NCBI GenBank assembly: GCA_964016885.1 | Contig: OZ024755.1 | Span: forward strand, 42,222,001-42,286,000 | Length of the DNA stretch: 64,000 nt | Reading direction: 5' to 3' | Origin: Eledone cirrhosa | Lineage: Eukaryota | Shown here: in pieces, positions 6,286 to 57,088 of the stretch | Layout: every line of letters starts with the position of its first letter | Position numbering within the stretch: position 1 is the stretch's first letter | The notes under the pieces: generated by a model | Told to the model about the DNA's origin: nothing | What the model saw: the letters and a program-made list of their open reading frames with translations, nothing else | The model's database searches: none | Position numbers and translations under genes: made by a program

Positions 6286-6339
<54 letters not shown>

Positions 6340-12400: not shown

Positions 12401-12933
12401 TGCTATACTGCTTGTCAGGTGCGTTTCGGTTAGTGCCATGCATAGTGCTTGATTGCTTATGGCTAAGTCTCCCAGGTAGGAAATTTTACTCATGTTGCTG
12501 AGTTTCACCAGGCCCCTGACATTCAGCAGCAGCACTGATGTGACTTTTGGGGTGCCAGTAATGGCTGTCGGTATGACACCTGGTCTGGTGTCAGCGGCGG
12601 CCACTCTGGGTCCCTTAACTGCGGTGGTCTCGAGTGCTGGTGTGGATGACCCTGGCTCTGGAGACGATGCAGCCAGGTCAGCTGTCCCACAATCTTCTCT
12701 GCCATCGCTAAAAAATTTTTTTATGATCTGCTGCTGCCATCTGTATCTCGTCGGCATGTGCGTGCCTTCTCCTTGTTGGTGCAGCACGCGCGACATCAGC
12801 ATACTTCTGGAGCGGCTTATTTCGGCTTAGGCTGGGGCATGTTGCGCGAGTATGATGGGCATAGTTCGTTTGAGACCTAGGGTGGGCGAATCTGCATCCC
12901 ATCCCTGTCTCTCCATGCCAGCATGTCCCGTTC

Positions 12934-19607: not shown

Positions 19608-19817
19608 TTATATATATATACTTATATATATATATACTTATATATAGTATTAAGGATACTATTTATGGTTATGTATATACTAAAACCTTTTTATAGTTAT
19701 ATATATTTTAAACCCTAAATAGTGAAAGACAGTAATTTATTACTATCTTATTACCAGTACGATAAATAGCTCAATGTAACAACATCAGTTGTTTTACAGA
19801 GCAGTTATATAGAAATT

Positions 19818-20192
19818 AAAAACGGCTGCTATTTCTGGCGGCACGAGTATAGGACTGCCTAGACGCTGGGATACCATGTGCGTTCAACAACACATTCTCT
19901 CAGTCTTCCTAAGTATTTTGAAGTGAAACATACCAATTTCTGGATACTTGCAGCTGAGCACAGAAATGGAATTTTCACTTATTGTTGCGAAACAGATTTG
20001 AGTTTTGAAATTTAAATTTGTCCAGGTATCACGGCTATTGCCAATATGGGTTTGTTTTTATTTATTTATTATTTTAAATCGAGACAGGCAAACTGTATTA
20101 ATTTAATTAGTATTTTTCAATCTAGCTAACTTGATCATTTGCAGTACAAACACATATATACTTGTATTCGTGTTTATCATATATTAATTTGT
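19818..20192. repeat. Inverted partial copy of the 495-bp repeat at 23992-25028
   Basis: Reverse complement of ~23992-24367. Confidence 0.85.
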
Positions 20193-20254
20193 ATAAGTAT
20201 ATATATATATATAAGTAAATATATATATATATATATAAGTATATATATATATAA

Positions 20255-23906: not shown

Positions 23907-23991
23907 TTATGTATATATATATATATATATATATACTTATATATATATATACTTATATATATATATATATATATACTTATATATATACTTA

Positions 23992-25028
23992 TACAAATTA
24001 ATATATGATAAACACGAATACAAGTATATATGTGTTTTTATTACAAATGATCAAGTTAGCTGGATTGAAAAGTACTAATTAAATTAATACAGTTTGCCTG
24101 TCTCGATTTAAAATAATAAATAAATAAAAGCAAACCCATATTGGCAATAGCCGTGATACCTGGACAAATTTAAATTTCAAAACTCAAATCTGTTTCGCAA
24201 CAATACGTGAAAATTCCATTTCTGTGCTCAGCTGCAGGTATCCATAAATTAGTATGTTTCACTTCAAAATACTTAGGAAGACTGAGGGAATGTGTTGTTG
24301 AACGCACATAGTGTCCCAGCGTCTAGCCAGTCCTATACTCGTACCGCCAGAAATAGCAGCCGTTTTTATGGGACTAAAAATTTAGCTCAAAACATGGAGC
24401 CCAGAATACTATATATAGAGTTATAAACTCAAACAGTCTTTTACAATTAAATAGCTCAAAGAAAGAGATATTTCCGAGCCGTGAAATACAAATTAATATA
24501 TGATAAACACTAATACAAGTATATAAGTGTTTGTAATGCAAATGACCAAGTTAGCTAGATTGAAAAATACTAATTAATTTAATACAGTTTGCCTGTCTCG
24601 ATTTAAAATAATAAATCAATAAAAACAAACCCATATTGGCAATAGCCGTGATACCTGGACAAATTTAAATTTCAAAACTCAAATCTGTTTCGCAACAATA
24701 AGTGAAAATTCCATTTCTGTGCTCAGCTGCAGGTATCCAGAAATTAGTATGTTTCACTTCAAAATACTTAGGAAGACTGAGAGAATGTGTTGTTGAACGC
24801 ACATGGTGTCCCAGCGTCTAGCCAGTCCTATACTCGTGCCGCCAGAAATAGCAGCCGTTTTTATGGGACTAAAAAATTTAGCTCAACACATGGAGCCGAG
24901 AATACTATATATAGAGTTATAAACTCAAACATGTGTTGAGCTAAATTTTTTAGTCCCATAAAACCGGCTGCTATTTCTGGCGGCACGAGTATAGGACTGG
25001 CTAGACGCTGGGACACCATGTGCGTTCA
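23992..25028. repeat. 495-bp tandem repeat (~1.9 copies) plus terminal snap-back inversion
   Basis: TACAAATTAATATATG at 23992 and 24487; 24931-25028 inverts ~24793-24892. Confidence 0.9.
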
Positions 25029-25050
25029 AACAAGTATATATATAAGTATA

Positions 25051-26691: not shown

Positions 26692-28260
26692 AGGCGCCCC
26701 ACCCACCGTCTAAGCAATTTTGTTGACATTATTTTGGAACCACTATGTATTCACATACCCAGTTTCATCCGGGATGATATCGACTTCCTGTCCCATCTTC
26801 CCCAAACCACGGAAACGAATTCACTTCTACTCAGTTTTGATGTGGTAAGCCTTTACACCAACATTACACATGATTTAGGAATAAAGGCGGTTAAATACTG
26901 GGTGGAAAAACATAGAGAAGTGATTCCCATCAGATTCACAGCGCCATTTATATTAGACGCAGTGAAACTTATTCTGGAAAACAACACTTTCTTCTTCAAT
27001 GGAAAGAATTACATCCAAATTAGAGGCACAGCGATGGGAACGAAGTTTGCTCCCGTTTACGCGAACTCTGTAATGAGATACTTAGAACAACAACTCTACC
27101 AAGAAATAGAGGAAAAATATAGTACTGACTTTAGAAAGTACATTGAAAAATCTTGGAAGAGATACCTTGACGACTGTTTCATCATCTGGACAGACTCTCT
27201 AGATACTCTGGATGAGTTCAATATCCTCCTGAATAACCTACATCCATCTCTCCAATTCACAAAAGAGATGAGTAGGACCAAATTACCATTCCTAGATATA
27301 ATTATAATCAAAAACGACACCACCATTACCACGGATATATATTATAAACACACAGACACCCAACAATATCTGAATTTTAAGTCGTGCCATCCACCTCATA
27401 CAAAACGCAACATCCCATACTGCTTAGCCAAAAGAATTTGTACCATTGTAGAAGATACGAATACCAGGTACAAACGCCTAACAGAACTAAGAGAATTTTT
27501 GCTCAAACAAAAATACCCATTTCTACTTATAGAAAATGGCATACAGCTGGCTATAAAAATACCTATACAACAACTTAGGACAACCCAAGGAAGAAGAAAC
27601 CAAGAACTGGTCATACCATTTATAATGACACACAACCCATGTCACCAGAATATCTTCAACACTGCCAAAGCAAACCTACCAAAGTAATGAATTAAAAGGC
27701 TTAATCACAGATCGATCTTTGACTCTTAGTAAAAGACAGCCAAAAAATTTGAAGCAATTACTAACAAAAGCAAAGTTTGACCTTAACAACAAAGACCAAT
27801 CATTCACTGTATCTAAATGCAATGATAGTCGATGCGGCACATGTCAATCCATACACACCGGTCAATATATGAAAACAAAAACTGGAAAAATATTCCCAAA
27901 TGCAAATATGAACTGCAAAAGCAGAAATCTAATTTACTGCATTAAATGCCCGAATTGTGAAGAACTATATGTCGGTCAAACTGGAAATGCACTATCGGAA
28001 CGTTCATGGGTACACCGTCAGCAAATCAGAGACCCAAATGTCCGTCAGATACCCCTAAGTAACCATCTAGCAACATGTGGTCAGGGAATATTTATAATAT
28101 TCCCATTCTACAAATTACACAGCCCAAGTGAAATCAAGAGAAAAATCAAAGAAAAGAATTTTATTGATAAATTCAAACCCAAGCTAAATGAACAATAATA
28201 ACGCTTAGGGGTATTACTTCTACTATGACTATGACTACGACCATGTCGACTACGACGACT

Positions 28261-28308
<48 letters not shown>

Positions 28309-28760
28309 AATAATAAAAGTGATGTTGATGGTGATGATTACTAGAAAATGCTATTTTCATCATTTCTAAAAACAGCAAAATAATTGTTGGTCGTTAGACA
28401 TGCTCAACCAGCCGTGACGCTTAAACCAATCAGCTTTAGCAATTCAGTGCAACTACACACCGATTGGTCGAAATACAGTTTGCAAGATTTAGCATTCTGG
28501 AGCCACTTTTCACTGTATATAAGGTACAAAATTTACCCATCTCATTACAGTTGAAAATTGCAAACTTGACTCTCACCACATATTATGAACCTGAAGATTG
28601 CAAAAGCATGAAAGTACTTGTTCAATTAACACTTAGAATTTAATATTCTATCATACTATTTCATTATAATATCATTATAAATTTAAAGGATTGTAATAAA
28701 ACGAGTAAATCAGACAAAGTTGGAATTCCTCTTATTAATATAATCTTCTATACACAATCA
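26648..28760 (+). mobile_element. 5'-truncated Penelope-like element (Neptune-like) with 5' inversion, frameshifted RT/EN, (CAA)n and terminal hammerhead
   Basis: ORF 26734-27687 (SFDVVSLYTNI, GTAMGT.FAP.YAN, RYLDD, PFLD). ORF 27719-28198 (C...RC..C, IYCI.C..C...YVGQT...R...H). 26648-26695 is the reverse complement of 26849-26896. Confidence 0.92.
28586..28624 (+). ncRNA. Type-I minimal hammerhead (family E), 3' end of the Neptune-like PLE
   Basis: TGAAC-CTGAAGA-TTGC-AAAA-GCAT-GAAA-GTAC-TT^GTTCA. Confidence 0.88.
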
Positions 28761-30324: not shown

Positions 30325-30577
30325 TTATTTATATATATATATATTTATATTTAAACAATTAAGTTAAAAATGTACATCCACATATGTATACTGAAATACT
30401 AGTATGCATATGAATACACACACGTGTACATATGTAGATGTACCGAGTTTTTCACTGGACACTTTACTGTGAGTGTTCAGCTATTCTGTATGTAAACACA
30501 CAGACAAACCGGTTTTTAGAGTCATACTGGTTTTCGAGGAAACACATTTCCTCTATTCTCCAGAAAGCCAGACAGGA

Positions 30578-30620
30578 ATATTGGACTAGTTTCGATGTTG
30601 TTACATCTCATCAGCAATAT
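30578..30620 (-). ncRNA. Canonical type-I hammerhead (family F)
   Basis: ATATTG-CTGATGA-GATGT-AACA-ACATC-GAAA-CTAG-TC^CAATAT. Confidence 0.93.
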
Positions 30621-31042
30621 TTACCTATCCTCCGGCCTTTCTAGAGAATCGTAAAAGCACATATCGTTATATGCTTTTTCTATGAAAATTAGTAGTGGGC
30701 AGACTAATTTGCATAGAGCGTGAGTACGTACCGGTTCAGCGGAGACGATAAAAACAAATAACGAAACGAAATTAAATTTCGTTTCGTTTGTAACTCACTT
30801 TTGTATGACTGACGCTTAAACAATTAAGTTAAAAATGTACATCCACATATGTATACTGAAATACTAGTATGCATATGAATACACACACGTGTACATATGT
30901 AGATGTACCGAGTTTTTCACTGGACACTTTACTGTGAGTGTTCAGCTATTCTGTATGTAAACACACAGACAAACCGGTTTTTAGAGTCATACTGGTTTTC
31001 GAGGAAACACATTTCCTCTATTCTCCAGAAAGCCAGACAGGA

Positions 31043-31085
31043 ATATTGGACTAGTTTCGATGTTGTTACATCTCATCAGCAATAT
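31043..31085 (-). ncRNA. Canonical type-I hammerhead (family F)
   Basis: Identical to the 30578 copy. Confidence 0.93.
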
Positions 31086-31371
31086 TTACCTATCCTCCGG
31101 CCTTTCTAGAGAATCGTAAAAGCACATATCGTTATATGCTTTTTCTATGAAAATTAGTAGTGGGCAGACTAATTTGCATAGAGCGTGAGTACGTACCGGT
31201 TCAGCGGAGACGATAAAAACAAATAACGAAACGAAATTAAATTTCGTTTCGTTTGTAACTCACTTTTGTATGACTGACGCTTAAACAATTAAGTTAAAAA
31301 TGTACATCCACATATTCGCATATAACGATATGTGCTTTTACGATTCTCTAGAAAGGCCGGAGGATAGGTAA

Positions 31372-31414
31372 ATATTGCTGATGAGATGTAACAACATCGA
31401 AACTAGTCCAATAT
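31372..31414 (+). ncRNA. Canonical type-I hammerhead (family F)
   Basis: ATATTG-CTGATGA-GATGT-AACA-ACATC-GAAA-CTAG-TC^CAATAT. Confidence 0.93.
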
Positions 31415-31836
31415 TCCTGTCTGGCTTTCTGAAGAATAGAGGAAATGTGTTTCCTCGAACACCAGTATGACTCTAAAAACCGGTTTCTGTGTGTGTTTAC
31501 ATACAGAATAGCTGAACACTCACAGTAAAGTGTCCAGTGAAAAACTCGGTACATCTACATATGTACACGTGTGTGTATTCATATGCATAGTAGTATTTCA
31601 GTATACATATGTGGATGTATATTTTTAACTTAATTGTTTAAGCGTCAGTCATACAAAAGTGAGTTACAAACGAAACGAAATTTAATTTCGTTTCGTTACT
31701 TGTTTTTATCGTCTCCGCTGAACCGGTACGTACTCACGCTCTATGCAAATTAGTCTGCCCACTACTAATTTTCATAGAAAAAGCATATAACGATATGTGC
31801 TTTTACGATTCTCTAGAAAGGCCGGAGGATAGGTAA

Positions 31837-31879
31837 ATATTGCTGATGAGATGTAACAACATCGAAACTAGTCCAATAT
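31837..31879 (+). ncRNA. Canonical type-I hammerhead (family F)
   Basis: Identical motif. Confidence 0.93.
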
Positions 31880-32301
31880 TCCTGTCTGGCTTTCTGGAGA
31901 ATAGAGGAAATGTGTTTCCTCGAAAACCAGTATGACTCTAAAAACCGGTTTGTCTGTGTGTTTACATACAGAATAGCTGAACACTCACAGTAAAGTGTCC
32001 AGTGAAAAACTCGGTACATCTACATATGTACACGTGTGTGTATTCATATGCATACTAGTATTTCAGTATACATATGTGGATGTACATTTTTAACTTAATT
32101 GTTTAAGTGTCAGTCATACAAAAGTGAGTTACAAACGAAACGAAATTTAATTTCGTTTCGTTATTTGTTTTTATCGTCTCCGCTGAACCGGTACGTACTC
32201 ACGCTCTATGCAAATTAGTCTGCCCACTACTAATTTTCATAGAAAAAGCATATAACGATATGTGCTTTTACGATTCTCTAGAAAGGCCGGAGGATAGGTA
32301 A

Positions 32302-32344
32302 ATATTGCTGATGAGATGTAACAACATCGAAACTAGTCCAATAT
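32302..32344 (+). ncRNA. Canonical type-I hammerhead (family F)
   Basis: Identical motif. Confidence 0.93.
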
Positions 32345-32652
32345 TCCTGTCTGGCTTTCTGGAGAATAGAGGAAATGTGTTTCCTCGAAAACCAGTATGA
32401 CTCTAAAAACCGGTTTGTCTGTGTGTTTACATACAGAATAGCTGAACACTCACAGTAAAGTGTCCAGTGAAAAACTCGGTACATCTACATATGTACACGT
32501 GTGTGTATTCATATGCATACTAGTATTTCAGTATACATATGTGGATGTACATTTTTAACTTAATTGTTTAAGCGTCAGTCATACAAAAGTGAGTTACAAA
32601 CGAAACGAAATTTAATTTCGTTTCGTTATTTGTTTTTATATTTATATTTATT

Positions 32653-33024: not shown

Positions 33025-33063
<39 letters not shown>

Positions 33064-33209
33064 ATAAAAACATTTGAGTGCATTAGAGTCAAACACACTC
33101 ATCGTATTAGAGAAATGACAGTACAAGAGATAGCTCAATGTTATCAAACAGAGCCGAAAAAATTATATAAATCAACAAAGAAGCCTTTAATACATTAAAA
33201 ATCTTTAAT

Positions 33210-33252
33210 CGCTGACAATGTTTCCTCCCAGTTATTAGGCCTCTTCAGAGCA
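33210..33252 (-). ncRNA. Type-I minimal hammerhead (family H)
   Basis: Minus strand: TGCT-CTGAAGA-GGCCTAATAACTGGGAG-GAAAC-ATT-GTC^AGCG; weak stem II. Confidence 0.68.
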
Positions 33253-33970
33253 AGGAAAAGATAAAAAATATCAACGGCTAGAACAAGCCAAAATTCAGAA
33301 GAATAGAGAAATAGATAAATAGAAATTTAAATGTTACATTATAAGATATAATATGCAGGTAATATAAAAACAGGATAAGGGGGCAAGATCTAGGATGTGC
33401 CACACTGAATCTCTCTTAGAACTATGATAAAGGTACAAATGCCAGTGGAATACTCAGAGACTTACACGTTATTCTATTGCTCAAACAGCTGGAACACTCA
33501 TCACTGGAACTGATGAAGGTCCAACACACACATACGTACACACACACACAGTCCTAGAATTAAAGACCAGAGACTACATGAATTAAAAAAAGATTTTGAG
33601 TAATAGTGGAAAATCTGAGGGAGGAAGGTTTGATAACGTGAAGTCTAACAGATTAGGATATGAGACAGGAGAGAGGTAAGATGAGATGATGGAAGGATGA
33701 AGGTGAAAGAGTGAGGGATGGAATGGAGGAAGAAGGCGGTATCGGCCTTCGTCTTTCACTTGGATAACATTTATGGCATGGAGAGAGGAGAATGGTATAC
33801 ATGGGCAACTGCTGATATTTGACAACTCCCTTTCCTGGGGTTGGCCTCAAACGGGAATATTCCAGATGTACAACCCGTGGTCATTTGAGACCAAAGGGAG
33901 TCTTTGCCCTATATATATACATATATACACAAATATATATATACATATATACAAATATATATATACATAC

Positions 33971-36372: not shown

Positions 36373-36419
36373 CGTAAAAATAAGAAAATTGTAAAATTAA
36401 CTTACTTACTAAAATATCA

Positions 36420-36499
36420 CTTCCAACTAATTAGTTTCTGAAATGGAATAAATATACTTTCCGAAGAAAGCATAGAGAATCATTACGTCGTCAGGGAAA
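36420..36499 (-). ncRNA. Type-I hammerhead with extended stem II (family I)
   Basis: Minus strand: TTTCC-CTGACGA-[49 nt including ATGCTTTC-TTCG-GAAAGTAT]-GAAA-CTAATTAG-TT^GGAAG. Confidence 0.72.
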
Positions 36500-37018
36500 A
36501 CTGTTCTCAGCTAAGTATCCATGCAAGGCGTGGACTCTGGAAACTTATTCAAAAATAATTCAGTGGATTAGTTGGAAGTGATATTTTAGTAAGTAAGTTA
36601 ATTTTATAATTTTCTAATTTTACGTCTCTCATATTATTGTTCTGCAACCCCATGCATTGAACCACAAAGTTACTAAGACAAAACATATATTTGCTAGCAT
36701 TGATATGCATCTGTATGTATATATATGTTACTAGATATTAATTCTTTATAATTATCTCCAAATTATTTGTCGAGCAATATTGGCCAAATCTGCTGCTATG
36801 GTAGCAGGCAGGCCGCTGTCTTATTAGCAAACCACTTTCCACTGATTGACCTCGATGTCACGTGATTGATTCTTTTTGAATTTGCCACCGACGCAGAGGC
36901 AGTGATTTTCTCAATGGCTAGAAATTCAGTCCACGCTTTGCTATTTTCTATCCACTGAATTATTTTTGAATAAGTTTCCAGAGTCCACGCCTTGCCTGGA
37001 TACTTAGCTGAGAATAGT

Positions 37019-37098
37019 CTTCCCTGACGACGTAATGATTCTCCATGCTTTCTTCGGAAAGTATATTTATTCCATTTCAGAAACTAATTAGTTCGAAG
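37019..37098 (+). ncRNA. Hammerhead family I, stem I point mutant
   Basis: CTTCC-CTGACGA...GAAA-CTAATTAG-TT^CGAAG. Confidence 0.62.
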
Positions 37099-37268
37099 TG
37101 ATATTTTAGTAAGTAAGTTAATTTTATAATTTTGTTATTTTACGTCTCTCATATTATTGTTCTGCAACCCCATGCATTAAACCACAAGGTTACTAAGACA
37201 AAACCTATATATTTGCTAGCATTGATATGCATCTGTATGTATATATATGTTACTAGATATTAATTCTT

Positions 37269-37406
<138 letters not shown>

Positions 37407-37412
37407 AATATG

Positions 37413-37472
<60 letters not shown>

Positions 37473-37494
37473 AATATGTATATATATAAATATG

Positions 37495-37568
<74 letters not shown>

Positions 37569-37570
37569 AG

Positions 37571-37689
<119 letters not shown>

Positions 37690-37690
37690 G

Positions 37691-37779
<89 letters not shown>

Positions 37780-37780
37780 G

Positions 37781-37813
<33 letters not shown>

Positions 37814-37814
37814 G

Positions 37815-37863
<49 letters not shown>

Positions 37864-37872
37864 GTATATATG

Positions 37873-37935
<63 letters not shown>

Positions 37936-39684
37936 GTATATATATATGTATATATGTATATGTGTAAGGTGTTCGTGCATTTTTTAAATTATGGACGTAC
38001 GCTGCTAAATCCCATCCATATACTCCTCATAGTAGAGTATGCAACCTGTGCCTTGCCGAATCCCACTCTATTATATTTGCTAAATGCCCTCTACTAAATA
38101 GAAAGTCTGAAATTTTTTCCTCTTGCCCCCACCGAATATTAAGCTCTTTCTTCTACTTTAAACCTGTTAGCTAGCACGTCCTTATTCCTCCAGTTGGGCT
38201 GTCTTGTGTAACTGTCTCTGACTGAGTGTAACTGTCTCCTAATGTTGGTCGTCTATGTATACGAGTCTGTGAATGTATACGTATGCCTGTGGGAGGATAT
38301 TGATCTTGATATTGGGGTGTGCAGGGGAGTGTATGTTAATAAGCACCCCTGTTTGGTACAGTGGATGTAACCCATCCACGCTGGCCTACCCACCATTAGT
38401 GCATTGGTGAACCTATCCTGACGTATATCTTGTTGATCTGTACCTCTGTATGCGCATGAGTTGTGATGTAATGTATTTATGTAAAGCGTGTACTGTGATT
38501 TAGGCTGCACTAGTGGAAATTTAGCCTGTAACTGTGGGCGGACCCGTGCCATCCTGCCGTAAGCAGTGGATACTTGGCGCATATACGTGTTGCCCTCATA
38601 TTCTGTGGTTCAAGATCTACAGGCTGACCTCTGGGAGCTCTTACCCGGGGTCGTAGTCTTTCTAGCACGATCGGCCTTCCATATATTGACTGTCGTTTTT
38701 ATGATCCCGAAAGTAACGTTTTGGCCCCGATGGCCCTCCGTAGTTACTAACGGTCTGTGTACACTCGAATCGGTCAATGGCACGTGCAGACATGAATATC
38801 TCCGTAGGATTTCAACTTTATTTTAATACATCTCATCGTATGTATTTGTTTTGAATATATTACCTGTGGTGGTGGGTCTGGTCTAATGTGGTATTTCGGT
38901 GTTTAATATCGTATTTAATATCGTATTTAATATCGGCTTTGACCCGGGTGTCCTATGCTGTGTGTGTGTGCGTGTGTGTCCGTGTATACATTTATATGTG
39001 TATGGGTGTAGGTGGTTATATGTGTCTGTGTATATTTAAAAAAAAAATATATATATATATGTATACCGTCTCTGCATATGCATGTGGTGTGTATACGTGC
39101 ATATACGTGCTGAACATATTGATGTGTACAATCTTGTGATGTCCCAATGCGGTGACTTAATGGCTCTTGAAGCTATTTTTTTATATATCTTCTGTCTTTT
39201 TATATATATTTTGTATGCGCTACAACTGTGTCTGCTTGCTTTAACCTCACCTCGCTTGCTAATGCATGTGAATTCTTCTACCTCCTTCGATGCACCTCTC
39301 TCTGACCATTTGACTCCTGCCCGTGTGTGAACCGGTTTGTGATTACCCCACCGCTCAACTGTGTGAATGCACACCCATGACTTTCGAGTGAACTTTCGAG
39401 ACTGCCCAACCTGGGACGCCTCCATTGCCTTGCAATGGTCAAGTGATACTGGTGACTGTGACACTTAGTGCCTTCGTGGGCCCCTGATGTTTTCAAGAAA
39501 TATATTTTAAAAAATTGGTCAAGTGATACACATAACTGTGACATTTAGTGCCTTCGTGGGCCCCTGATATATTCAAGAGATATATTCTAAAAAAATATAT
39601 ATCTTATCTCAATTTACTTTATTTCATTTTATTTTATTTCATTTCATGTTATCTAATTTTATTTATTTACTTACTTGACTCCAT

Positions 39685-39720
<36 letters not shown>

Positions 39721-39788
39721 ATTTAAATTTGAATTTTAATTTTAAAATTTTAAAATTTAAATTTTAATTTTATTTATTTATTTAATTT

Positions 39789-39820
<32 letters not shown>

Positions 39821-40401
39821 TTACATTTAATTACATTTAATTATACATTTAATTATATCTTATATTATATTATTTTAATTTAGTCTATGTTATTTGATTT
39901 TAGTTTACCTTATTTTATCTTATTTTACGATTATACTATATTATGTTCTATGTATATAATTTTTAATTTTTAATTTTATATTATTTTATCTCATTCCTTA
40001 CCCTATATTTTATATTTTATATGTAAGTTTGTTATGTATTTCTTTGTATTTCTTTTTATATATATTATAAGTCTGTTTTTCACCTATTTTTTACCTATTT
40101 TTTACCTACTCTTACCTAATCCCATTATCTTATCTACTCTTGTCTGTTCTCTTATCCATGTGTCTACTCTTGTCTGTTCTCTTATCCATGTGTATGCTTG
40201 TATGTAACTATATGTTGACAGCACCCCGCCCAACTGTGACTGATAGCACCCCTTATTTTTATTTTTATTTTTATTTTTATTTTTATTTTTATTTTTACTT
40301 TTATTTTTATTTTTATTCTTATCCTCTATCGTCTATTATTACCTTTCATTCTTCAATGTCTTGGATTTGTTATTGCTTGTATGGTATGTAATTAACCTTT
40401 A

Positions 40402-40447
40402 TGCTCTGATGAGTTCCACTTATAGTGCGGATGAAACAATGTTAGCA
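40402..40447 (+). ncRNA. Type-I minimal hammerhead (family J)
   Basis: TGCT-CTGATGA-GTTCCACT-TAT-AGTGCGGAT-GAAAC-AAT-GTT^AGCA. Confidence 0.85.
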
Positions 40448-40660
40448 AGTAAAGATATGCATATGCTATAAGCGTTCTTTGTTATTTATTTATTATATTA
40501 CGGCTCTGTCCTCAGACATTGAGCTAACCTCATACTGCCTGCTGGATAAGTGGAGTGTTATACACCCCTGATCCTTTCCCTAGCATACTATACGGCTCCC
40601 ACTGGTTGAGCTTAAACTTTGATATACGCGGATTTGCGTCCTTGTATATTATCAGGCAGT

Positions 40661-43153
40661 ATGCTAACAAAGACATACTTACCCATTTCCTTGAAGAATA
40701 TTCCCACCCACCCCTAAAATCTCGTATGAGAAATCATTGATAACTAGCATAAACTCATTCGTAAAACGTGTTCGGTGGCGTGCGTTCCACTTTGATAGGA
40801 GGTATGATAGCCCTGAGGAGAGGCGTAGTTTTAATAATTATGGATTTAAGACCTATAGGAGCCCCCCCGCATAATAGCCTGTTGGATAACTTCGAAAGTG
40901 AGCTATTATCCCTTGTTAGGAATATTAGATATAAAAAATCTAGATGTACCAATAAATTTCAGAGTAAACTAAGTTCAATCGTTAGGGACTTTAGGGATAA
41001 TAAATCCATTCTGGTCCCCTCTGACAAAACTAAAAACTTATATAGTATGGATTATAAAACCTATCGAGGCTTCATTTATAATGAACTACATAGGAACTAC
41101 AAAAAAACAACGCAGAGTAATTTAGATAATATTAATCTGGAGGGGTATAACATAGTGGTAAAATTAGGTCTGGATAAACACACTCAGCCTTATTACCCCA
41201 AGCAGCCTAGATTCACCCTCAAGGACCACAAGGAAGATTTTATTAGCAGACCCTCGGTTAGGCTTATCTGCCCCTCCAAGTCTGACCTGGGGATTATTAG
41301 TAAGGGAATCTTGGATAGCGTTATTCCCCTGGTTAGAGAAAAAACTTTCCTTGAGCTTTGGGGGTAACACTAGTGAGGTCATTACATGGTTCTCTACTGA
41401 TTGTGGTCGTGACTCACTAAAATTCATCCAATTTGATATTGATGCTTATTATACATCTATATCTCCTATTATCCTCAATAAGGCCCTCATCCTAGCCATG
41501 CGGAGGGGGGCAATTACTAGGCCACAGATAGATATTGTTCTCGCTGCACGTAAAACCATTATCATGTTTGAGGATAATCTATGGACGAGAAAAAACACAC
41601 CTGATAATTTTGACATCACTATGGGGTCGAGTGACTCTGCTCAAGTCACCGACTTAGTTGGACTATACCTCCTCAATGAACTGCATAGTAACTTCCCTTT
41701 CCTTAGGGGTGGGTTGTACCGAGATGACGCCCTACTCTCCATAGATACTAGTAAGTATAATATAGAGCGCATTAGGAAAAAGCTGCATAGCTTTTTTAAA
41801 ACTTTTAACCTATCCATTACAATGGATGTAAATGATAGAACTGTGAACTTCCTAGATGTTACACTGGACTTGGATAACCATACGTACACACCGTACCATA
41901 AGCCCAATGAATTGCTGACTTACGTGAATACCAACTCCAACCACCCTAGGTCTGTCATCAGCGGTATACTGAAGGGCGTATCTAACAGAATAAGTTCACT
42001 CTCACATAGTGAGGAGGCGTTTGACTCGCAGGCTGATTACTATAACGACGCCTTAGCTAGATCCGGCTTTAGGGACAAATTGTATTACACCCAGGGAAAT
42101 AATGGTCCTAATAGTAGCTCTACCAGTGTTGTTATAACACATAATATGTCCATTGGTAATCGAGGTGTCGCGAATGGTAGGGTTCTAAATGCCGGTGGAA
42201 TGAAACAGCAGGGCACCATTAGTCTAAGTAATAACAATAGAGGTGTCGTGAACGGGAGGTTTCTAGATGCCGGTGGAATGAACCAGCAGGGCACCATTAG
42301 TCTAAGTAATAGCAATGGTGGGCCTCGCAGCTCCCCGCATAGACTAGGTGAGCATAGGAACCGTAGAAATAATAATGCTAATAATACTGACGGAAATAGA
42401 AAGAATAAAAAGAATAGAAGAAGATTGAATACATACTTCAACCCCCCTTTTAATTCTGAAGTGGCTACAAATATTCCTAGGGCCTTCTTCTCTGTGCTAG
42501 AACGGAACTTCCCTCCTGGTAATAGGTACCACTCTATCCTCAATAAGAATGTTGTTAAACTTTCGTATTCTACAACCCAAAATCTGGCCTCTCATCTGAC
42601 CATTACTAATAATAAGAAAATAAAGGAAGGCCTGGACAACCTAAGCCTAGGGGAAAACACGGTAGTGGATAGAGTGGGCAGTAACACTGGTGGTAATCTT
42701 TCTGAGAATAGCATCACCAGTGGTTGTAACTGTAGAAGGGCTTTAGGCTGCCCCCTGAATGGTTTCTGCCTTGTTAGAAACATAGTTTATGCGTGTGATG
42801 TGGTAACTACGGCGTCCACTATGACCTATATAGGATCAACTTCCACCCCCTTTAAGACCAGGTTTAACTCTCATCAATGCACTTTTAGACATAATAAACT
42901 GAAGAACTCCACCTCCTTGGCAGCGTACGTCCATAATTTAAAAAATGCACGAACACCTTACACACTTACTTGGCGGCAGGTTGCTAAATCCCATCCATAT
43001 ACTCCTCATAGTAGAGTATGCAACCTGTGCCTTGCCGAATCCCACTCTATTATATTTGCTAAATGCCCTCTACTAAATAGAAAGTCTGAAATTTTTTCCT
43101 CTTGCCCCCACCGAATATTAAGCTCTTTCTTCTACTTTAAACCTGTTAGCTAG
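40661..43153 (+). CDS. PLE RT-GIY-YIG polyprotein (~829 aa reconstructed), split by three +1 frameshifts at ~40714, ~40868 and ~41364
   Basis: ATG 40661 MLTKTYLPISLKNIP / PKISYEKSLI..NSFVKRVRWRAFHF..YGFKT..SPP / LLDNFE..SDKTKNLY..TLKDHK..RLICPSKSDLG..LWG / NTSEVITWF..GLYRDD..CNC..CPL..YIGST..CNLC. Confidence 0.9.
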
Positions 43154-44663
43154 CACGTCCTTATTCCTCCAGTTGGGCTGTCTTGTGTAACTGTCTCTGA
43201 CTGAGTGTAACTGTCTCCTAATGTTGGTCGTCTATGTATACGAGTCTGTGAATGTATACGTATGCCTGTGGGAGGATATTGATCTTGATATTGGGGTGTG
43301 CAGGGGAGTGTATGTTAATAAGCACCCCTGTTTGGTACAGTGGATGTAACCCATCCACGCTGGCCTACCCACCATTAGTGCATTGGTGAACCTATCCTGA
43401 CGTATATCTTGTTGATCTGTACCTCTGTATGCGCATGAGTTGTGATGTAATGTATTTATGTAAAGCGTGTACTGTGATTTAGGCTGCACTAGTGGAAATT
43501 TAGCCTGTAACTGTGGGCGGACCCGTGCCATCCTGCCGTAAGCAGTGGATACTTGGCGCATATACGTGTTGCCCTCATATTCTGTGGTTCAAGATCTACA
43601 GGCTGACCTCTGGGAGCTCTTACCCGGGGTCGTAGTCTTTCTAGCACGATCGGCCTTCCATATATTGACTGTCGTTTTTATGATCCCGAAAGTAACGTTT
43701 TGGCCCCGATGGCCCTCCGTAGTTACTAACGGTCTGTGTACACTCGAATCGGTCAATGGCACGTGCAGACATGAATATCTCCGTAGGATTTCAACTTTAT
43801 TTTAATACATCTCATCGTATGTATTTGTTTTGAATATATTACCTGTGGTGGTGGGTCTGGTCTAATGTGGTATTTCGGTGTTTAATATCGTATTTAATAT
43901 CGTATTTAATATCGGCTTTGACCCGGGTGTCCTACGCTGTGTGTGTGTGCGTGTGTGTCCGTGTATACATTTATATGTGTATGGGTGTAGGTGGTTATAT
44001 GTGTCTGTGTATATTTAAAAAAAAAATATATATATATATGTATACCGTCTCTGCATATGCATGTGGTGTGTATACGTGCATATACGTGCTGAACATATTG
44101 ATGTGTACAATCTTGTGATGTCCCAATGCGGTGACTTAATGGCTCTTGAAGCTATTTTTTTATATATCTTCTGTCTTTTTATATATATTTTGTATGCGCT
44201 ACAACTGTGTCTGCTTGCTTTAACCTCACCTCGCTTGCTAATGCATGTGAATTCTTCTACCTCCTTCGATGCACCTCTCTCTGACCATTTGACTCCTGCC
44301 CGTGTGTGAACCGGTTTGTGATTACCCCACCGCTCAACTGTGTGAATGCACACCCATGACTTTCGAGTGAACTTTCGAGACTGCCCAACCTGGGACGCCT
44401 CCATTGCCTTGCAATGGTCAAGTGATACTGGTGACTGTGACACTTAGTGCCTTCGTGGGCCCCTGATGTTTTCAAGAAATATATTTTAAAAAATTGGTCA
44501 AGTGATACACATAACTGTGACATTTAGTGCCTTCGTGGGCCCCTGATATATTCAAGAGATATATTCTAAAAAAATATATATCTTATCTCAATTTACTTTA
44601 TTTCATTTTATTTTATTTCATTTCATGTTATCTAATTTTATTTATTTACTTACTTGACTCCAT

Positions 44664-44699
<36 letters not shown>

Positions 44700-44767
44700 A
44701 TTTAAATTTGAATTTTAATTTTAAAATTTTAAAATTTAAATTTTAATTTTATTTATTTATTTAATTT

Positions 44768-44799
<32 letters not shown>

Positions 44800-45374
44800 T
44801 TACATTTAATTACATTTAATTATACATTTAATTATATCTTATATTATATTATTTTAATTTAGTCTATGTTATTTGATTTTAGTTTACCTTATTTTATCTT
44901 ATTTTACGATTATACTATATTATGTTCTATGTATATAATTTTTAATTTTTAATTTTATATTATTTTATCTCATTCCTTACCCTATATTTTATATTTTATA
45001 TGTAAGTTTGTTATGTATTTCTTTGTATTTCTTTTTATATATATTATAAGTCTGTTTTTCACCTATTTTTTACCTATTTTTTACCTACTCTTACCTAATC
45101 CCATTATCTTATCTACTCTTGTCTGTTCTCTTATCCATGTGTCTACTCTTGTCTGTTCTCTTATCCATGTGTATGCTTGTATGTAACTATATGTTGACAG
45201 CACCCCGCCCAACTGTGACTGATAGCACCCCTTATTTTTATTTTTATTTTTATTTTTATTTTTATTTTTACTTTTATTTTTATTTTTATTCTTATCCTCT
45301 ATCGTCTATTATTACCTTTCATTCTTCAATGTCTTGGATTTGTTATTGCTTGTATGGTATGTAATTAACCTTTA

Positions 45375-45420
45375 TGCTCTGATGAGTTCCACTTATAGTG
45401 CGGATGAAACAATGTTAGCA
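45375..45420 (+). ncRNA. Type-I minimal hammerhead (family J), copy 2
   Basis: Identical to 40402. Confidence 0.85.
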
Positions 45421-45633
45421 AGTAAAGATATGCATATGCTATAAGCGTTCTTTGTTATTTATTTATTATATTACGGCTCTGTCCTCAGACATTGAGCTAA
45501 CCTCATACTGCCTGCTGGATAAGTGGAGTGTTATACACCCCTGATCCTTTCCCTAGCATACTATACGGCTCCCACTGGTTGAGCTTAAACTTTGATATAC
45601 GCGGATTTGCGTCCTTGTATATTATCAGGCAGT

Positions 45634-48126
45634 ATGCTAACAAAGACATACTTACCCATTTCCTTGAAGAATATTCCCACCCACCCCTAAAATCTCGTAT
45701 GAGAAATCATTGATAACTAGCATAAACTCATTCGTAAAACGTGTTCGGTGGCGTGCGTTCCACTTTGATAGGAGGTATGATAGCCCTGAGGAGAGGCGTA
45801 GTTTTAATAATTATGGATTTAAGACCTATAGGAGCCCCCCCGCATAATAGCCTGTTGGATAACTTCGAAAGTGAGCTATTATCCCTTGTTAGGAATATTA
45901 GATATAAAAAATCTAGATGTACCAATAAATTTCAGAGTAAACTAAGTTCAATCGTTAGGGACTTTAGGGATAATAAATCCATTCTGGTCCCCTCTGACAA
46001 AACTAAAAACTTATATAGTATGGATTATAAAACCTATCGAGGCTTCATTTATAATGAACTACATAGGAACTACAAAAAAACAACGCAGAGTAATTTAGAT
46101 AATATTAATCTGGAGGGGTATAACATAGTGGTAAAATTAGGTCTGGATAAACACACTCAGCCTTATTACCCCAAGCAGCCTAGATTCACCCTCAAGGACC
46201 ACAAGGAAGATTTTATTAGCAGACCCTCGGTTAGGCTTATCTGCCCCTCCAAGTCTGACCTGGGGATTATTAGTAAGGGAATCTTGGATAGCGTTATTCC
46301 CCTGGTTAGAGAAAAAACTTTCCTTGAGCTTTGGGGGTAACACTAGTGAGGTCATTACATGGTTCTCTACTGATTGTGGTCGTGACTCACTAAAATTCAT
46401 CCAATTTGATATTGATGCTTATTATACATCTATATCTCCTATTATCCTCAATAAGGCCCTCATCCTAGCCATGCGGAGGGGGGCAATTACTAGGCCACAG
46501 ATAGATATTGTTCTCGCTGCACGTAAAACCATTATCATGTTTGAGGATAATCTATGGACGAGAAAAAACACACCTGATAATTTTGACATCACTATGGGGT
46601 CGAGTGACTCTGCTCAAGTCACCGACTTAGTTGGACTATACCTCCTCAATGAACTGCATAGTAACTTCCCTTTCCTTAGGGGTGGGTTGTACCGAGATGA
46701 CGCCCTACTCTCCATAGATACTAGTAAGTATAATATAGAGCGCATTAGGAAAAAGCTGCATAGCTTTTTTAAAACTTTTAACCTATCCATTACAATGGAT
46801 GTAAATGATAGAACTGTGAACTTCCTAGATGTTACACTGGACTTGGATAACCATACGTACACACCGTACCATAAGCCCAATGAATTGCTGACTTACGTGA
46901 ATACCAACTCCAACCACCCTAGGTCTGTCATCAGCGGTATACTGAAGGGCGTATCTAACAGAATAAGTTCACTCTCACATAGTGAGGAGGCGTTTGACTC
47001 GCAGGCTGATTACTATAACGACGCCTTAGCTAGATCCGGCTTTAGGGACAAATTGTATTACACCCAGGGAAATAATGGTCCTAATAGTAGCTCTACCAGT
47101 GTTGTTATAACACATAATATGTCCATTGGTAATCGAGGTGTCGCGAATGGTAGGGTTCTAAATGCCGGTGGAATGAAACAGCAGGGCACCATTAGTCTAA
47201 GTAATAACAATAGAGGTGTCGTGAACGGGAGGTTTCTAGATGCCGGTGGAATGAACCAGCAGGGCACCATTAGTCTAAGTAATAGCAATGGTGGGCCTCG
47301 CAGCTCCCCGCATAGACTAGGTGAGCATAGGAACCGTAGAAATAATAATGCTAATAATACTGACGGAAATAGAAAGAATAAAAAGAATAGAAGAAGATTG
47401 AATACATACTTCAACCCCCCTTTTAATTCTGAAGTGGCTACAAATATTCCTAGGGCCTTCTTCTCTGTGCTAGAACGGAACTTCCCTCCTGGTAATAGGT
47501 ACCACTCTATCCTCAATAAGAATGTTGTTAAACTTTCGTATTCTACAACCCAAAATCTGGCCTCTCATCTGACCATTACTAATAATAAGAAAATAAAGGA
47601 AGGCCTGGACAACCTAAGCCTAGGGGAAAACACGGTAGTGGATAGAGTGGGCAGTAACACTGGTGGTAATCTTTCTGAGAATAGCATCACCAGTGGTTGT
47701 AACTGTAGAAGGGCTTTAGGCTGCCCCCTGAATGGTTTCTGCCTTGTTAGAAACATAGTTTATGCGTGTGATGTGGTAACTACGGCGTCCACTATGACCT
47801 ATATAGGATCAACTTCCACCCCCTTTAAGACCAGGTTTAACTCTCATCAATGCACTTTTAGACATAATAAACTGAAGAACTCCACCTCCTTGGCAGCGTA
47901 CGTCCATAATTTAAAAAATGCACGAACACCTTACACACTTACTTGGCGGCAGGTTGCTAAATCCCATCCATATACTCCTCATAGTAGAGTATGCAACCTG
48001 TGCCTTGCCGAATCCCACTCTATTATATTTGCTAAATGCCCTCTACTAAATAGAAAGTCTGAAATTTTTTCCTCTTGCCCCCACCGAATATTAAGCTCTT
48101 TCTTCTACTTTAAACCTGTTAGCTAG
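45634..48126 (+). CDS. PLE RT-GIY-YIG polyprotein, copy 2, same three frameshifts
   Basis: ORFs 45741-46340 and 46324-48126 translate identically to copy 1. Confidence 0.9.
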
Positions 48127-49636
48127 CACGTCCTTATTCCTCCAGTTGGGCTGTCTTGTGTAACTGTCTCTGACTGAGTGTAACTGTCTCCTAATGTTGG
48201 TCGTCTATGTATACGAGTCTGTGAATGTATACGTATGCCTGTGGGAGGATATTGATCTTGATATTGGGGTGTGCAGGGGAGTGTATGTTAATAAGCACCC
48301 CTGTTTGGTACAGTGGATGTAACCCATCCACGCTGGCCTACCCACCATTAGTGCATTGGTGAACCTATCCTGACGTATATCTTGTTGATCTGTACCTCTG
48401 TATGCGCATGAGTTGTGATGTAATGTATTTATGTAAAGCGTGTACTGTGATTTAGGCTGCACTAGTGGAAATTTAGCCTGTAACTGTGGGCGGACCCGTG
48501 CCATCCTGCCGTAAGCAGTGGATACTTGGCGCATATACGTGTTGCCCTCATATTCTGTGGTTCAAGATCTACAGGCTGACCTCTGGGAGCTCTTACCCGG
48601 GGTCGTAGTCTTTCTAGCACGATCGGCCTTCCATATATTGACTGTCGTTTTTATGATCCCGAAAGTAACGTTTTGGCCCCGATGGCCCTCCGTAGTTACT
48701 AACGGTCTGTGTACACTCGAATCGGTCAATGGCACGTGCAGACATGAATATCTCCGTAGGATTTCAACTTTATTTTAATACATCTCATCGTATGTATTTG
48801 TTTTGAATATATTACCTGTGGTGGTGGGTCTGGTCTAATGTGGTATTTCGGTGTTTAATATCGTATTTAATATCGTATTTAATATCGGCTTTGACCCGGG
48901 TGTCCTACGCTGTGTGTGTGTGCGTGTGTGTCCGTGTATACATTTATATGTGTATGGGTGTAGGTGGTTATATGTGTCTGTGTATATTTAAAAAAAAAAT
49001 ATATATATATATGTATACCGTCTCTGCATATGCATGTGGTGTGTATACGTGCATATACGTGCTGAACATATTGATGTGTACAATCTTGTGATGTCCCAAT
49101 GCGGTGACTTAATGGCTCTTGAAGCTATTTTTTTATATATCTTCTGTCTTTTTATATATATTTTGTATGCGCTACAACTGTGTCTGCTTGCTTTAACCTC
49201 ACCTCGCTTGCTAATGCATGTGAATTCTTCTACCTCCTTCGATGCACCTCTCTCTGACCATTTGACTCCTGCCCGTGTGTGAACCGGTTTGTGATTACCC
49301 CACCGCTCAACTGTGTGAATGCACACCCATGACTTTCGAGTGAACTTTCGAGACTGCCCAACCTGGGACGCCTCCATTGCCTTGCAATGGTCAAGTGATA
49401 CTGGTGACTGTGACACTTAGTGCCTTCGTGGGCCCCTGATGTTTTCAAGAAATATATTTTAAAAAATTGGTCAAGTGATACACATAACTGTGACATTTAG
49501 TGCCTTCGTGGGCCCCTGATATATTCAAGAGATATATTCTAAAAAAATATATATCTTATCTCAATTTACTTTATTTCATTTTATTTTATTTCATTTCATG
49601 TTATCTAATTTTATTTATTTACTTACTTGACTCCAT

Positions 49637-49672
<36 letters not shown>

Positions 49673-50331
49673 ATTTAAATTTGAATTTTAATTTTAAAAT
49701 TTTAAAATTTAAATTTTAATTTTATTTATTTATTTAATTTTTATTTATTTATTTATTTATTTATTTAATTACATTTAATTACATTTAATTATACATTTAA
49801 TTATATCTTATATTATATTATTTTAATTTAGTCTATGTTATTTGATTTTAGTTTACCTTATTTTATCTTATTTTACGATTATACTATATTATGTTCTATG
49901 TATATAATTTTTAATTTTTAATTTTATATTATTTTATCTCATTCCTTACCCTATATTTTATATTTTATATGTAAGTTTGTTATGTATTTCTTTGTATTTC
50001 TTTTTATATATATTATAAGTCTGTTTTTCACCTATTTTTTACCTATTTTTTACCTACTCTTACCTAATCCCATTATCTTATCTACTCTTGTCTGTTCTCT
50101 TATCCATGTGTCTACTCTTGTCTGTTCTCTTATCCATGTGTATGCTTGTATGTAACTATATGTTGACAGCACCCCGCCCAACTGTGACTGATAGCACCCC
50201 TTATTTTTATTTTTATTTTTATTTTTACTTTTATTTTTATTTTTATTCTTATCCTCTATCGTCTATTATTACCTTTCATTCTTCAATGTCTTGGATTTGT
50301 TATTGCTTGTATGGTATGTAATTAACCTTTA

Positions 50332-50377
50332 TGCTCTGATGAGTTCCACTTATAGTGCGGATGAAACAATGTTAGCA
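50332..50377 (+). ncRNA. Type-I minimal hammerhead (family J), copy 3
   Basis: Identical to 40402. Confidence 0.85.
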
Positions 50378-50422
50378 AGTAAAGATATGCATATGCTATA
50401 AGCGTTCTTTGTTATTTATTTA

Positions 50423-52747
<2,325 letters not shown>

Positions 52748-52879
52748 TGGAAAGTTATATTTAAATTGTTGGGTTAACAACGAGTAAATATTTATAACTG
52801 ATATAAAAGCACTCAACAAGTATTTGGAGTATATTTATGATATTAAATAAATGGAAACTATATTTATAAAACCATATTT

Positions 52880-55990: not shown

Positions 55991-56329
55991 CACACAGTTG
56001 GGTGTGGATGCATTCATGTATATATGTGTGTGTCCGCATGTATCTGTGTGTTTCTAAATATATTGTTAATAACTCCCTCTGGTCGAGCAATCTTTGAAGT
56101 GTGGGGACAGCTGGAAAGCTTCCATTACTCATACTTCTCGCCTTCTTCACCACCTCTTCTACGGCCTCGATATAAATACCCCCTCCGCCTCCGTGGTATT
56201 TTCTTCGGGGTTATAAGAGGCTTAGCTCTGTTTCTCGACCGTTATATCGCGTGACTATCTCCCCCTCCGCCTTTTGGGATTCTTTCTCACGTCGTGTAGA
56301 CGCGTTCTTGAGACTAGTAAAATGAGGTA

Positions 56330-56419
56330 TCCTCTTCATAAGTCGGCAGACCTCGCAAGGACTCTATATCTTTATGATATATTGTTTTTGTTTATGCCAC
56401 GAAACTACGTAGTCGAGGA
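56330..56419 (+). ncRNA. Hammerhead family K, probably inactive copy (core TTCATAA, G5>C)
   Basis: TCCTC-TTCATAA-GTCGGCA...TGCCAC-GAAA-CTACGTAG-TC^GAGGA. Confidence 0.6.
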
Positions 56420-56924
56420 ATTTAGGAGCAGTTTAGGTATGATACATTTTATTACTAATTATATCTAAATGTTTCTTCTCTCTTCATAATGTATTTTTAA
56501 CTCTGATACTGGTTCAGTCTAGTTCAAATGAATTGGTCTGTCCCAGTCATTCATTGAGCAACATCGGTGAAGTAGGCACCCTTAACTCACAGTTGGGTGT
56601 GGATGCATTCATGTATATATGTGTGTATCCGCATGTATCTGTGTGTTTCTAAATATATTGTTAATAACTCCCTCTGGTCGAGCAATCTTTGAAGTGTGGG
56701 GACAGCTGGAAAGCTTCCATTACTCATACTTCTCGCCTTCTTCACCACCACTTCTACGGCCTCGATATAAATACCCCCTCCGCCTCCGTGGTATTTTCTT
56801 CGGGGTTATAAGAGGCTTAGCTCTGTTTCTCGACCGTTATATCGCGTGACTATCTCCCCCTCCGCCTTTTGGGATTCTTTCTCACGTCGTGTAGACGCGT
56901 TCTTGAGACTAGTAAAATGAGGTA

Positions 56925-57014
56925 TCCTCTTGATAAGTCGGCAGACCTCGCAAGGACTCTATATCTTTATGATATATTGTTTTTGTTTATGCCACGAAAC
57001 TACGTAGTCGAGGA
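56925..57014 (+). ncRNA. Hammerhead family K with U3:A8 core and long stem II
   Basis: TCCTC-TTGATAA-GTCGGCA...TGCCAC-GAAA-CTACGTAG-TC^GAGGA. Confidence 0.78.
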
Positions 57015-57088
57015 ATTTAGGAGCAGTTTAGGTATGATACATTTTATTACTAATTATATCTAAATGTTTCTTCTCTCTTCATAATGTA

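Follow-up and report, generated by a model that had tools for sequence, protein, structure and literature searches.

A covarying twin hairpin lies beside insertion ends of Hydra-type Penelope-like elements: a young tandem array in Eledone cirrhosa

How a Penelope-like element (PLE) comes to stand in a chromosome as a head-to-tail array, and what sets the point at which such an array stops, is the question raised by a 64,000-nucleotide stretch of the Eledone cirrhosa genome (assembly GCA_964016885.1, contig OZ024755.1, positions 42,222,001 to 42,286,000 of the forward strand; the window, along which all positions below are counted). As assembled, it carries 2.50 head-to-tail PLE units of about 4.97 kb at 38003-50428. 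PLE tandems of 'two or more ORFs' (open reading frames), inverted 5' pieces and tails are described in PMC8557442 (Craig et al., 2021), and the origin of the pseudo-long terminal repeats (pLTRs), the tandems and the 'tail', together with the role of the hammerhead ribozyme, is described as unresolved both there and in PMC7761336. On its own the 2.5-unit array is a clean but expected case of this known architecture and not a new system. Its value comes from a covarying twin hairpin, by which insertion ends are predicted and probable client repeats recognized; judged by sequence comparison, the hairpins likely tell the reverse transcriptase (RT) where to start.

Both hairpins lie on the plus strand downstream of the predicted ribozyme cleavage site. 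Hairpin 1 (40503-40524, repeated in unit 2 at 45476-45497) consists of a GCUC stem, a 2-nt UU bulge and a 4-bp upper stem and begins 60 nt after cleavage, while hairpin 2 (40595-40611, repeated at 45568-45584) is 152 nt from the cleavage site and 66 nt upstream of the ATG; the terminal, partial unit 3 is without hairpin 1. Relatives were examined at 78 metagenomic loci, representing the best 80 of 417 confirmed stretches with 30 of 64 parts scanned. A sense hammerhead was present in 47 of the 78, and downstream of the cleavage site the relatives carry, mostly twice, a hairpin with the consensus GCUC-(C/U)...(G/A)-UY-GAGC. It was found within 250 nt in 32 of the 42 loci with enough sequence, at positions +37 to +60 and +102 to +135; five of the ten hairpin-less loci enter (TA)n early and the other five have degenerate forms, as judged by eye. 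Matches numbered 81 in sense and 10 in antisense, with about four expected from shuffles, and hairpin 2 stands 31-68 nt before the ATG. Loose-pattern matches at 2181 and 2197 sit in an unrelated insertion and were treated as chance.

The upper stem of the hairpin covaries. Of 68 distinct hairpins, 67 have a Watson-Crick pair at the first position of this stem (43 C-G and 24 U-A), against a shuffle mean of 36 and a maximum of 51 over 10,000 shuffles, and against 1-13 of 68 in slid controls; the second and third pairs hold in 45/62 and 31/45, with four pair types each, all of these counts being inflated by the relatedness of the sequences. Hairpin 1 taken alone shows both types of first pair (13 U-A, 9 C-G). 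The stems served as anchors for counting pairs, because variable loop length had spoiled a MAFFT alignment of 54 hairpins. No published description of the hairpin was found in a literature search that left figures, most of the PMC8557442 supplement and subscription papers outside its scope; among the motif matches listed for that supplement (4 of 12), none lay within a Hydra tail.

The position of the hairpins relative to insertion ends is the observation that gives them their interest. At the right end of the array the last matching base corresponds to 40498, 5 nt short of the start of hairpin 1 at 40503 (up to 13 nt if microhomology is allowed for). Contigs of the same family, assembled from three public runs (X1, X2 and X4) of one organism and two samples, enter (TA)n after 40592, 3 nt before hairpin 2. 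Summed contig depth, which is not copy number, falls at 40482, 40531 and 40629 from 18278 to 7284 to 177 in X1, from 19198 to 5725 to 0 in X2 and from 651 to 299 to 15 in X4. Among the relatives, 11 of 15 distinct termini lie at -3 to +5 nt from a hairpin, a range into which 8% of positions overall and 13% of AT-rich ones fall (P 1.6e-7 against the latter); this count derives from 16 rows, the L060-versus-L066 row having been dropped as the mirror of L066 and the L062 row taken as the L060 end.

Of five non-coding partial tandems in the window, three, with units of 495, 520 and 595 bp, likewise stop 5-7 nt short of a hairpin or hairpin variant, and no ribozyme was detected in these three, Rfam having been run on the 495-bp repeat. 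The 495-bp repeat (23990-25029, minus strand; 19817-20194, plus strand) has both hairpins and a 5' inversion and, within (TA)n, stops about 7 nt short of hairpin 1; it is a candidate ribozyme-free client of Hydra-type PLEs. The 520-bp (36377-37272) and 595-bp (55993-57088) partial tandems end 5 and 7 nt before hairpin variants, hairpin 1 of the 595-bp unit being long-stemmed. The ends of a 465-bp retrozyme and of the repeat at 5487 do not adjoin a hairpin. The latter (5487-6287) is a partial tandem with a 495-bp period, 99.7% identical, that carries the word CTGATGAG, and no hairpin was found at its end. We note also a 3' fragment of a sister family at 33060-33910 (minus strand), with a hammerhead, hairpin 1 at +60 and an end near +152 in (TA)n, which, in the 101 nt surrounding the ribozyme, is 74% identical to the array.

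The array itself consists of unit 1 (38003-42981, 4979 bp), which runs from the end of the endonuclease (EN) through the 3' untranslated region (UTR), hammerhead, two hairpins and 5' UTR into the ORF as far as mid-EN, of unit 2 (42982-47954, 4973 bp) and of the partial unit 3 (47955-50428), all on the plus strand. Long (TA)n tracts, the target, flank it on both sides (37269-37961 and 50413-52748), and a target-site duplication is unreadable. Its start is within the EN; its end, 47-55 nt beyond the third cleavage site, overlaps (TA)n by TATATAT. The only substitution among the copies is at 38956, where copy 1 has T and copies 2 and 3 have C, a CpG to TpG change; a TTATTT tract loses 6 bp and then 12 bp more along the array, giving three lengths in three copies, and copy 3 lacks one TTTA. 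This completes the list of differences found, and the stretch of 2483 bp that is present twice (40499-42981 and its repeat) is 100% identical. With one CpG and microsatellites as the only differences, point divergence is near zero and the time available has been very short; the array is, on this sequence evidence, very young. To its left, a 45-nt segment (37961-38005, minus strand) repeats 42920-42964 in reverse complement; between it and the forward arm about 17 nt are missing, and the two overlap by 3 nt at the joint. Inversions of this geometry at the 5' end are accounted for by twin priming, and the arrangement here looks like it. A sequence-only reading of the locus had described a very young 2.5-mer of a 4.97-kb unit delimited by three hammerheads, starting mid-endonuclease and ending past the third ribozyme at (TA)n microhomology, and had named the same copy differences; in all of this it agrees with the present analysis. 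The 5' inversion, the twin hairpin and three ORF frameshifts discussed below did not feature in it.

The same reading had called the element Naiad-like, a label that does not hold, since the EN is C-terminal, the motif is DKT (not DKA) and every unit has a hammerhead. Naiads, as PMC8557442 describes them, carry their EN N-terminally, have a CxC domain and DKA, in most cases also an IFD, and lack a canonical hammerhead, whereas the Hydra clade is described as having a C-terminal GIY-YIG EN without CCHH, an RWK-type motif, DKT, CxCx5C, CxxC and CxH, a canonical hammerhead towards the 3' end and (TA)n as its target. Read through its frameshifts, the array protein has the order RWR, DKT, RT with YRDD, asparagine-rich insert, CxCx5C, GIY-YIG-type EN, CxxC and CxH. 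RWR lies at 40773 (RMRWK in the consensus of relatives), DKT at 41023 and YRDD at 41717, upstream of VYAC and YIG at 42785 and 42827, so that the EN is C-terminal to the RT. CxCx5C is at 42725, its cysteines C454, C456 and C462 being nearly invariant across 30 sequences; CxxC (43019) and CxH (43103) each occur once, and the GIY-YIG core is without an internal cysteine pair. Because of its C-terminal GIY-YIG, RWR, DKT, CxCx5C, hammerhead and (TA)n target, the element is by sequence a Hydra-clade PLE, a long-UTR variant of a known clade. It shares with the Hydra clade of PMC8557442 the domain order and motifs, a hammerhead with short stem III (file S2 of that paper), the (TA)n target and the partial tandem with an inverted 5' piece, and differs in the frameshifted ORF at this locus and in a unit of 4.97 kb, against a length given there as a descriptive trait of generally <3 kb; the excess is due to a 2.26-kb 3' UTR and the asparagine-rich insert. 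With Naiads it has in common a (TA)n preference, tandem and inverted insertions and a tail, as far as PMC8557442 describes these, but not the C-terminal EN, DKT or hammerhead.

With regard to an IFD or the Naiad CxC domain, the comparison was made with relatives, and the array sequence aligned with them across the RT. In a 24-row RT tree built without named Hydra references, the array joins a group of nine (support 100/99) that includes an Argonauta hians protein and two other elements of the window, and it is far from the window's Neptune-like RT. Of 7999 candidates scored, 418 were relatives; a search of viral contigs for relatives returned none. Pfam and PDB sequence searches gave no match for the array protein, and its predicted model matches RT folds, TERT among them.

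The three hammerheads are type I, on the plus strand at 40396-40455, 45369-45428 and 50326-50385, with cores at 40406, 45379 and 50336 and predicted cleavage, following GUU, after 40443, 45416 and 50373. From sequence their architecture comprises a CUGAUGA core, a bulged stem II, GAAA and a 3-bp stem III with a 1-nt loop, and in folding predictions stem III does not form in the monomer. They were detected by descriptor and folding, a descriptor of the same kind giving one call in 234 shuffled loci. Rfam made no hammerhead call on these three ribozymes, and over the whole window it returned microsatellite noise and HH9-like matches in the 465-bp retrozyme. The 3' UTR (43154-45416) is 2263 nt long and contains all the variable microsatellites, as against 111-549 nt (median 170, n=28) in relatives.

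Copy 1 of the ORF (40661-43153, plus strand) would encode about 829 amino acids if read through, and copy 2 (45634-48126) is identical to it. Between the thumb and the EN linker lies the asparagine-rich insert (42104-42463; 20% Asn), which has a 78-bp duplication and low model confidence. Three +1 shifts, in C4 at 40711 (40711-14), C7 at 40862 (40862-68) and G5 at 41360 (41360-64), are common to both full copies and spread the ORF over four reading frames; all are in C/G runs, 15 of the 18 such runs within the ORF are unbroken, and a TAA follows each shift. As assembled, then, the sequence of the array locus cannot make RT, and because both ORFs have the three frameshifts in common the locus is not a helper; the sequence-only expectation of a unit-length RNA with an intact ORF fails on the same point. 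The extra bases at 40862 and 41360 are missing from all the listed depth of family contigs (296/296, 310/310 and 6.3/6.3 for the former and 378/378, 345/345 and 6/6 for the latter, in X1, X2 and X4, respectively). The 40711 site falls outside the rows listed, and one X4 record that spans it has two gaps. Because the majority contigs are without the two checkable shifts, the family majority is probably intact. For the same reason, and because relatives encode RT and EN as one 700-800-amino-acid protein in a single ORF, programmed +1 frameshifting was ruled out. One relative, L018 (1-5083), has two intact 709-codon Hydra-type ORFs in tandem with one substitution between units, and is possibly assembler-unrolled.

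The shifts are unlikely to stem from one error-prone RT pass: copies 1 and 3 should then differ by about 3.7 such slips, yet they show none (P 0.03); a defective source copy and a consensus error remain. An old, decayed insertion was rejected. Among the best-supported ORF differences from the run majority, 12 of 20 codons are synonymous (P 0.005 at 0.30), and this bias points to a sister lineage under selection, to which the array would belong, and not to an aged copy. A-to-I editing of a template as the origin of shared differences was unsupported, A>G and T>C being about equal among 40 of 285 rows.

We propose, as a tentative reading that falls somewhat short of an even chance, that the array arose in one insertion by an RT supplied in trans, which likely started at a hairpin and re-entered a unit-length RNA template twice. 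A frameshifted source copy would be transcribed, and the protein of an intact family member would bind hairpin 1 or 2 of its RNA, both downstream of the ribozyme cleavage site. The GIY-YIG domain would then nick (TA)n, and RT would start 1-7 nt 5' of the hairpin; the start hairpin would be left uncopied, and the spacing of the two hairpins would correspond to the optional 'tail'. On a cleaved monomer the RT would meet the RNA 5' end after about 55 nt, and continuation, here for about 2.5 rounds, would need ligated ends (a circle) or an end-to-end jump. Finally, a second primer could make the 45-nt inversion and close the 5' end. In a ribozyme-cut monomer, hairpins 1 and 2 would stand 60 and 152 nt from the 5' end, and the RT must therefore cross the cleavage junction, whether by way of a circle, a jump or an uncleaved multimeric RNA. 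Simple copying of a linear cleaved monomer would not yield the 3' end of the array, which falls 3' of the cleavage site. Since arrays cannot grow by a linear route, the life cycle must at some point include re-entry or an expansion at the DNA level. The sequence-only reading had suggested a circular template. Re-entry, by circle or jump, does fit the position of the 3' end, but the array is compatible with a circle, a jump or a later duplication and is no proof of a circle. RT-PCR across the ribozyme, proposed as a check, cannot tell, because a circle and an uncleaved tandem transcript have the same junction sequence.

In favour of a single insertion, the left end has an inversion geometry of RT type, 10 of the 78 relative contigs have exact terminal repeats, and L018 holds two full ORFs. 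Several observations weigh against it. Depth in X1 and X2 climbs from about 300-400 at the ORF start to about 15,000 in the ribozyme region, which hints weakly that the RT seldom completes even a single unit and that a 12.4-kb product should be rare. Four termini of relatives (L004, L030, L034 and L078) miss the hairpins, the -3 to +5 range was picked after the data had been seen, and the loci are collapsed short-read contigs whose termini form 12 families, nine of them matching. The ribozyme of an Anolis PLE is reported in PMC11167929 to be dispensable for activity in vitro as far as cleavage is concerned, with no RNA-seq ends found at its cleavage site, and in the window the three hairpin-bearing repeats without a detected ribozyme form tandems of 1.3-1.9 units, so tandems do not need the hammerhead. 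The proposal also needs a frameshifted source that was both transcribed and mobilized in trans. Lastly, the middle copy agrees with copy 3 at 38956, on its left, and with copy 1 at the TTTA tract, on its right, which is the order predicted by unequal exchange or a false join; being based on two markers, with about 1 in 3 expected by chance, this is weak.

That marker order leads to the idea, which we consider rather unlikely, that a 1.5-unit insertion (pLTR-ORF-pLTR) later gained a unit by unequal exchange in its 2.5-kb repeats or by self-insertion at an AT-rich junction. Unequal exchange between LTRs is an established process, and a later gain would suit the complete identity of the two ORF-bearing stretches with all three frameshifts in common, the copy-3-like left and copy-1-like right of the middle repeat, and the steep 5' truncation gradient. 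The Anolis protein, moreover, is described as able to nick its own ORF-pLTR junction (PMC11167929). Near-zero point divergence, however, would require the second event to follow within a very short time, the marker order is weak given that the TTATTT tract differs in all three copies, and the frameshifts are no better explained. Alternatively, the source could have been an array of 2.5 units or more whose read-through transcript stayed uncleaved and was copied in a single RT pass, with no role for the ribozyme. Multi-copy mRNA, with unprocessed RNA as the dominant substrate, is the scenario given for the Anolis PLE (PMC11167929), minimal hammerheads are reported to cleave poorly as monomers (PMC4209133), and stem III of the array, with its 1-nt loop, is unformed in the monomer fold. 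Yet this would call for a parent just as long and homogeneous and a transcript of >12.4 kb across three ribozymes, and, since a linear route cannot lengthen arrays, it would push the question back one generation; we regard it as the least probable of the explanations considered.

The extra unit, and perhaps the frameshifts, might instead be an artefact of assembly or library preparation through loop unrolling, a mix of haplotypes or a template switch. Long (TA)n on both sides, identical ORF-bearing copies around a hybrid middle copy, and three shifts that are all +1 in C/G runs, two of them listed as missing from the family majority, would be expected of such an error, and complex PLE insertions are known to trouble assemblies (PMC8557442). 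We nevertheless think an artefact improbable, as the three versions of the repeat can be told apart, one of them by a CpG transition, and both outer junctions look biological; in addition, 15 of 18 C/G runs in the array ORF are unbroken, as are all 11 in a 992-codon LINE ORF of the window, although the latter is weak (P 0.13). A comparably improbable view concerns the hairpin, which could be a DNA site read by the endonuclease or an element of translation or ribozyme folding, with insertion ends adjoining it only through AT-rich pairing with (TA)n. The lower stem, being invariant, could act as a motif at sequence level; for cleavage, the Penelope EN of D. virilis required the tail DNA, as cited in PMC11167929; and hairpin 2 has its fixed place 31-68 nt before the ATG. 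Against this, the upper stem covaries and tolerates G-U, the enrichment at ends survives the AT-rich control, several ends (L054, L060) have little or no TA overlap, and non-coding repeats keep the hairpin at their ends.

A start signal downstream of the ribozyme would have a precedent. In the Anolis element PAc, of the Poseidon clade (Frangieh et al., 2024; PMC11167929), RT is described as starting internally, downstream of the ribozyme, with RNA 3' of the start required, and three-repeat loci are drawn. PAc resembles the array element in its tandem organization and AT-rich target, and in that two internal starts downstream of the ribozyme define a tail and RNA 3' of the start is needed; it differs in belonging to another clade. 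For PLE tandems in general, Cervera and de la Pena (2014; PMC4209133) proposed cleavage, ligation and more-than-unit reverse transcription of a circle. This is the same inference as that of the sequence-only reading; it is a hypothesis in that paper, with which the array is compatible without proving it. A bolder version, possible but in our estimate doubtful, would be that Hydra-clade PLEs replicate through a ribozyme-cut and re-closed RNA circle of <=5 kb on which the two hairpins mark the template boundary to a telomerase-related RT. The start hairpin would be lost in every insertion, and circularization or an end-to-end jump would restore the signal; the array would be 2.5 turns of such a template and the short, ribozyme-free twin-hairpin repeats true parasites.

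Animal non-long terminal repeat (non-LTR) retrozymes are described as non-autonomous PLE derivatives (Li, Clavereau, Pollet, 2026, 10.64898/2026.07.22.740005; PMC7761336), and the 465-bp hammerhead repeat of the window at 30351-32639 fits that class. The array had been put forward as a candidate helper of such small retrozymes. For the 465-bp one this finds no support, given the absence of any match of more than 11 nt to the array unit (best matches 11 nt, E 0.44), the lack of a hairpin at its ends (none at <=2 mismatches on either strand) and the broken ORF of the array; it has neither sequence nor hairpin in common with the array PLE, and those window repeats that do have the hairpin show no detected ribozyme. 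The retrozyme forms a head-to-head array of 2.1 units on the minus and 2.8 on the plus strand, whose arms end 233 and 298 nt past cleavage and thus define a 65-nt tail. A CGTC-like word comes next in the unit after each arm end and is perhaps the start signal of another PLE clade. The innermost plus unit has eight substitutions, against one or two in the others.

Some further features of the window and the runs concern the same families. Compared with X1, X4 is much enriched in variant sequence at 44220-44400 and 40335-40470, where the X1/X4 depth ratio is about 3-4, while over the ORF it stands at about 25-100; the enrichment falls after about 40470. Contig depth is a poor measure, and the excess may reflect an abundant short relative of the 3' end of the element. 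Three more, decayed Hydra-type elements lie on the minus strand at 2430-4507, 7324-8664 and 21524-23257. Two of them have long 3' UTRs, which may mark the Hydra subclade of this host, and one of these two has a hammerhead-like motif with a long stem II near 6672, identified by eye. The PLE at 26692-28600 (plus strand), which from its motifs we take to be Neptune-like, has RVT_1 and GIY-YIG matches and a hammerhead-like motif at 28591. The unbroken 992-codon ORF mentioned above belongs to an APE-RT long interspersed nuclear element (LINE) at 9848-12826 (minus strand), with TA tracts on either side.

A covarying, clade-wide hairpin that predicts insertion ends is a concrete cis signal to mutate, and the loss of this signal from terminal copies turns the choice between circle, jump and multimeric transcript into a defined in vitro question. 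The hairpin also provides a sequence test by which non-autonomous repeats can be assigned to a helper clade. If it is indeed the start signal of the RT, the way in which PLEs build their tandems would become directly testable.

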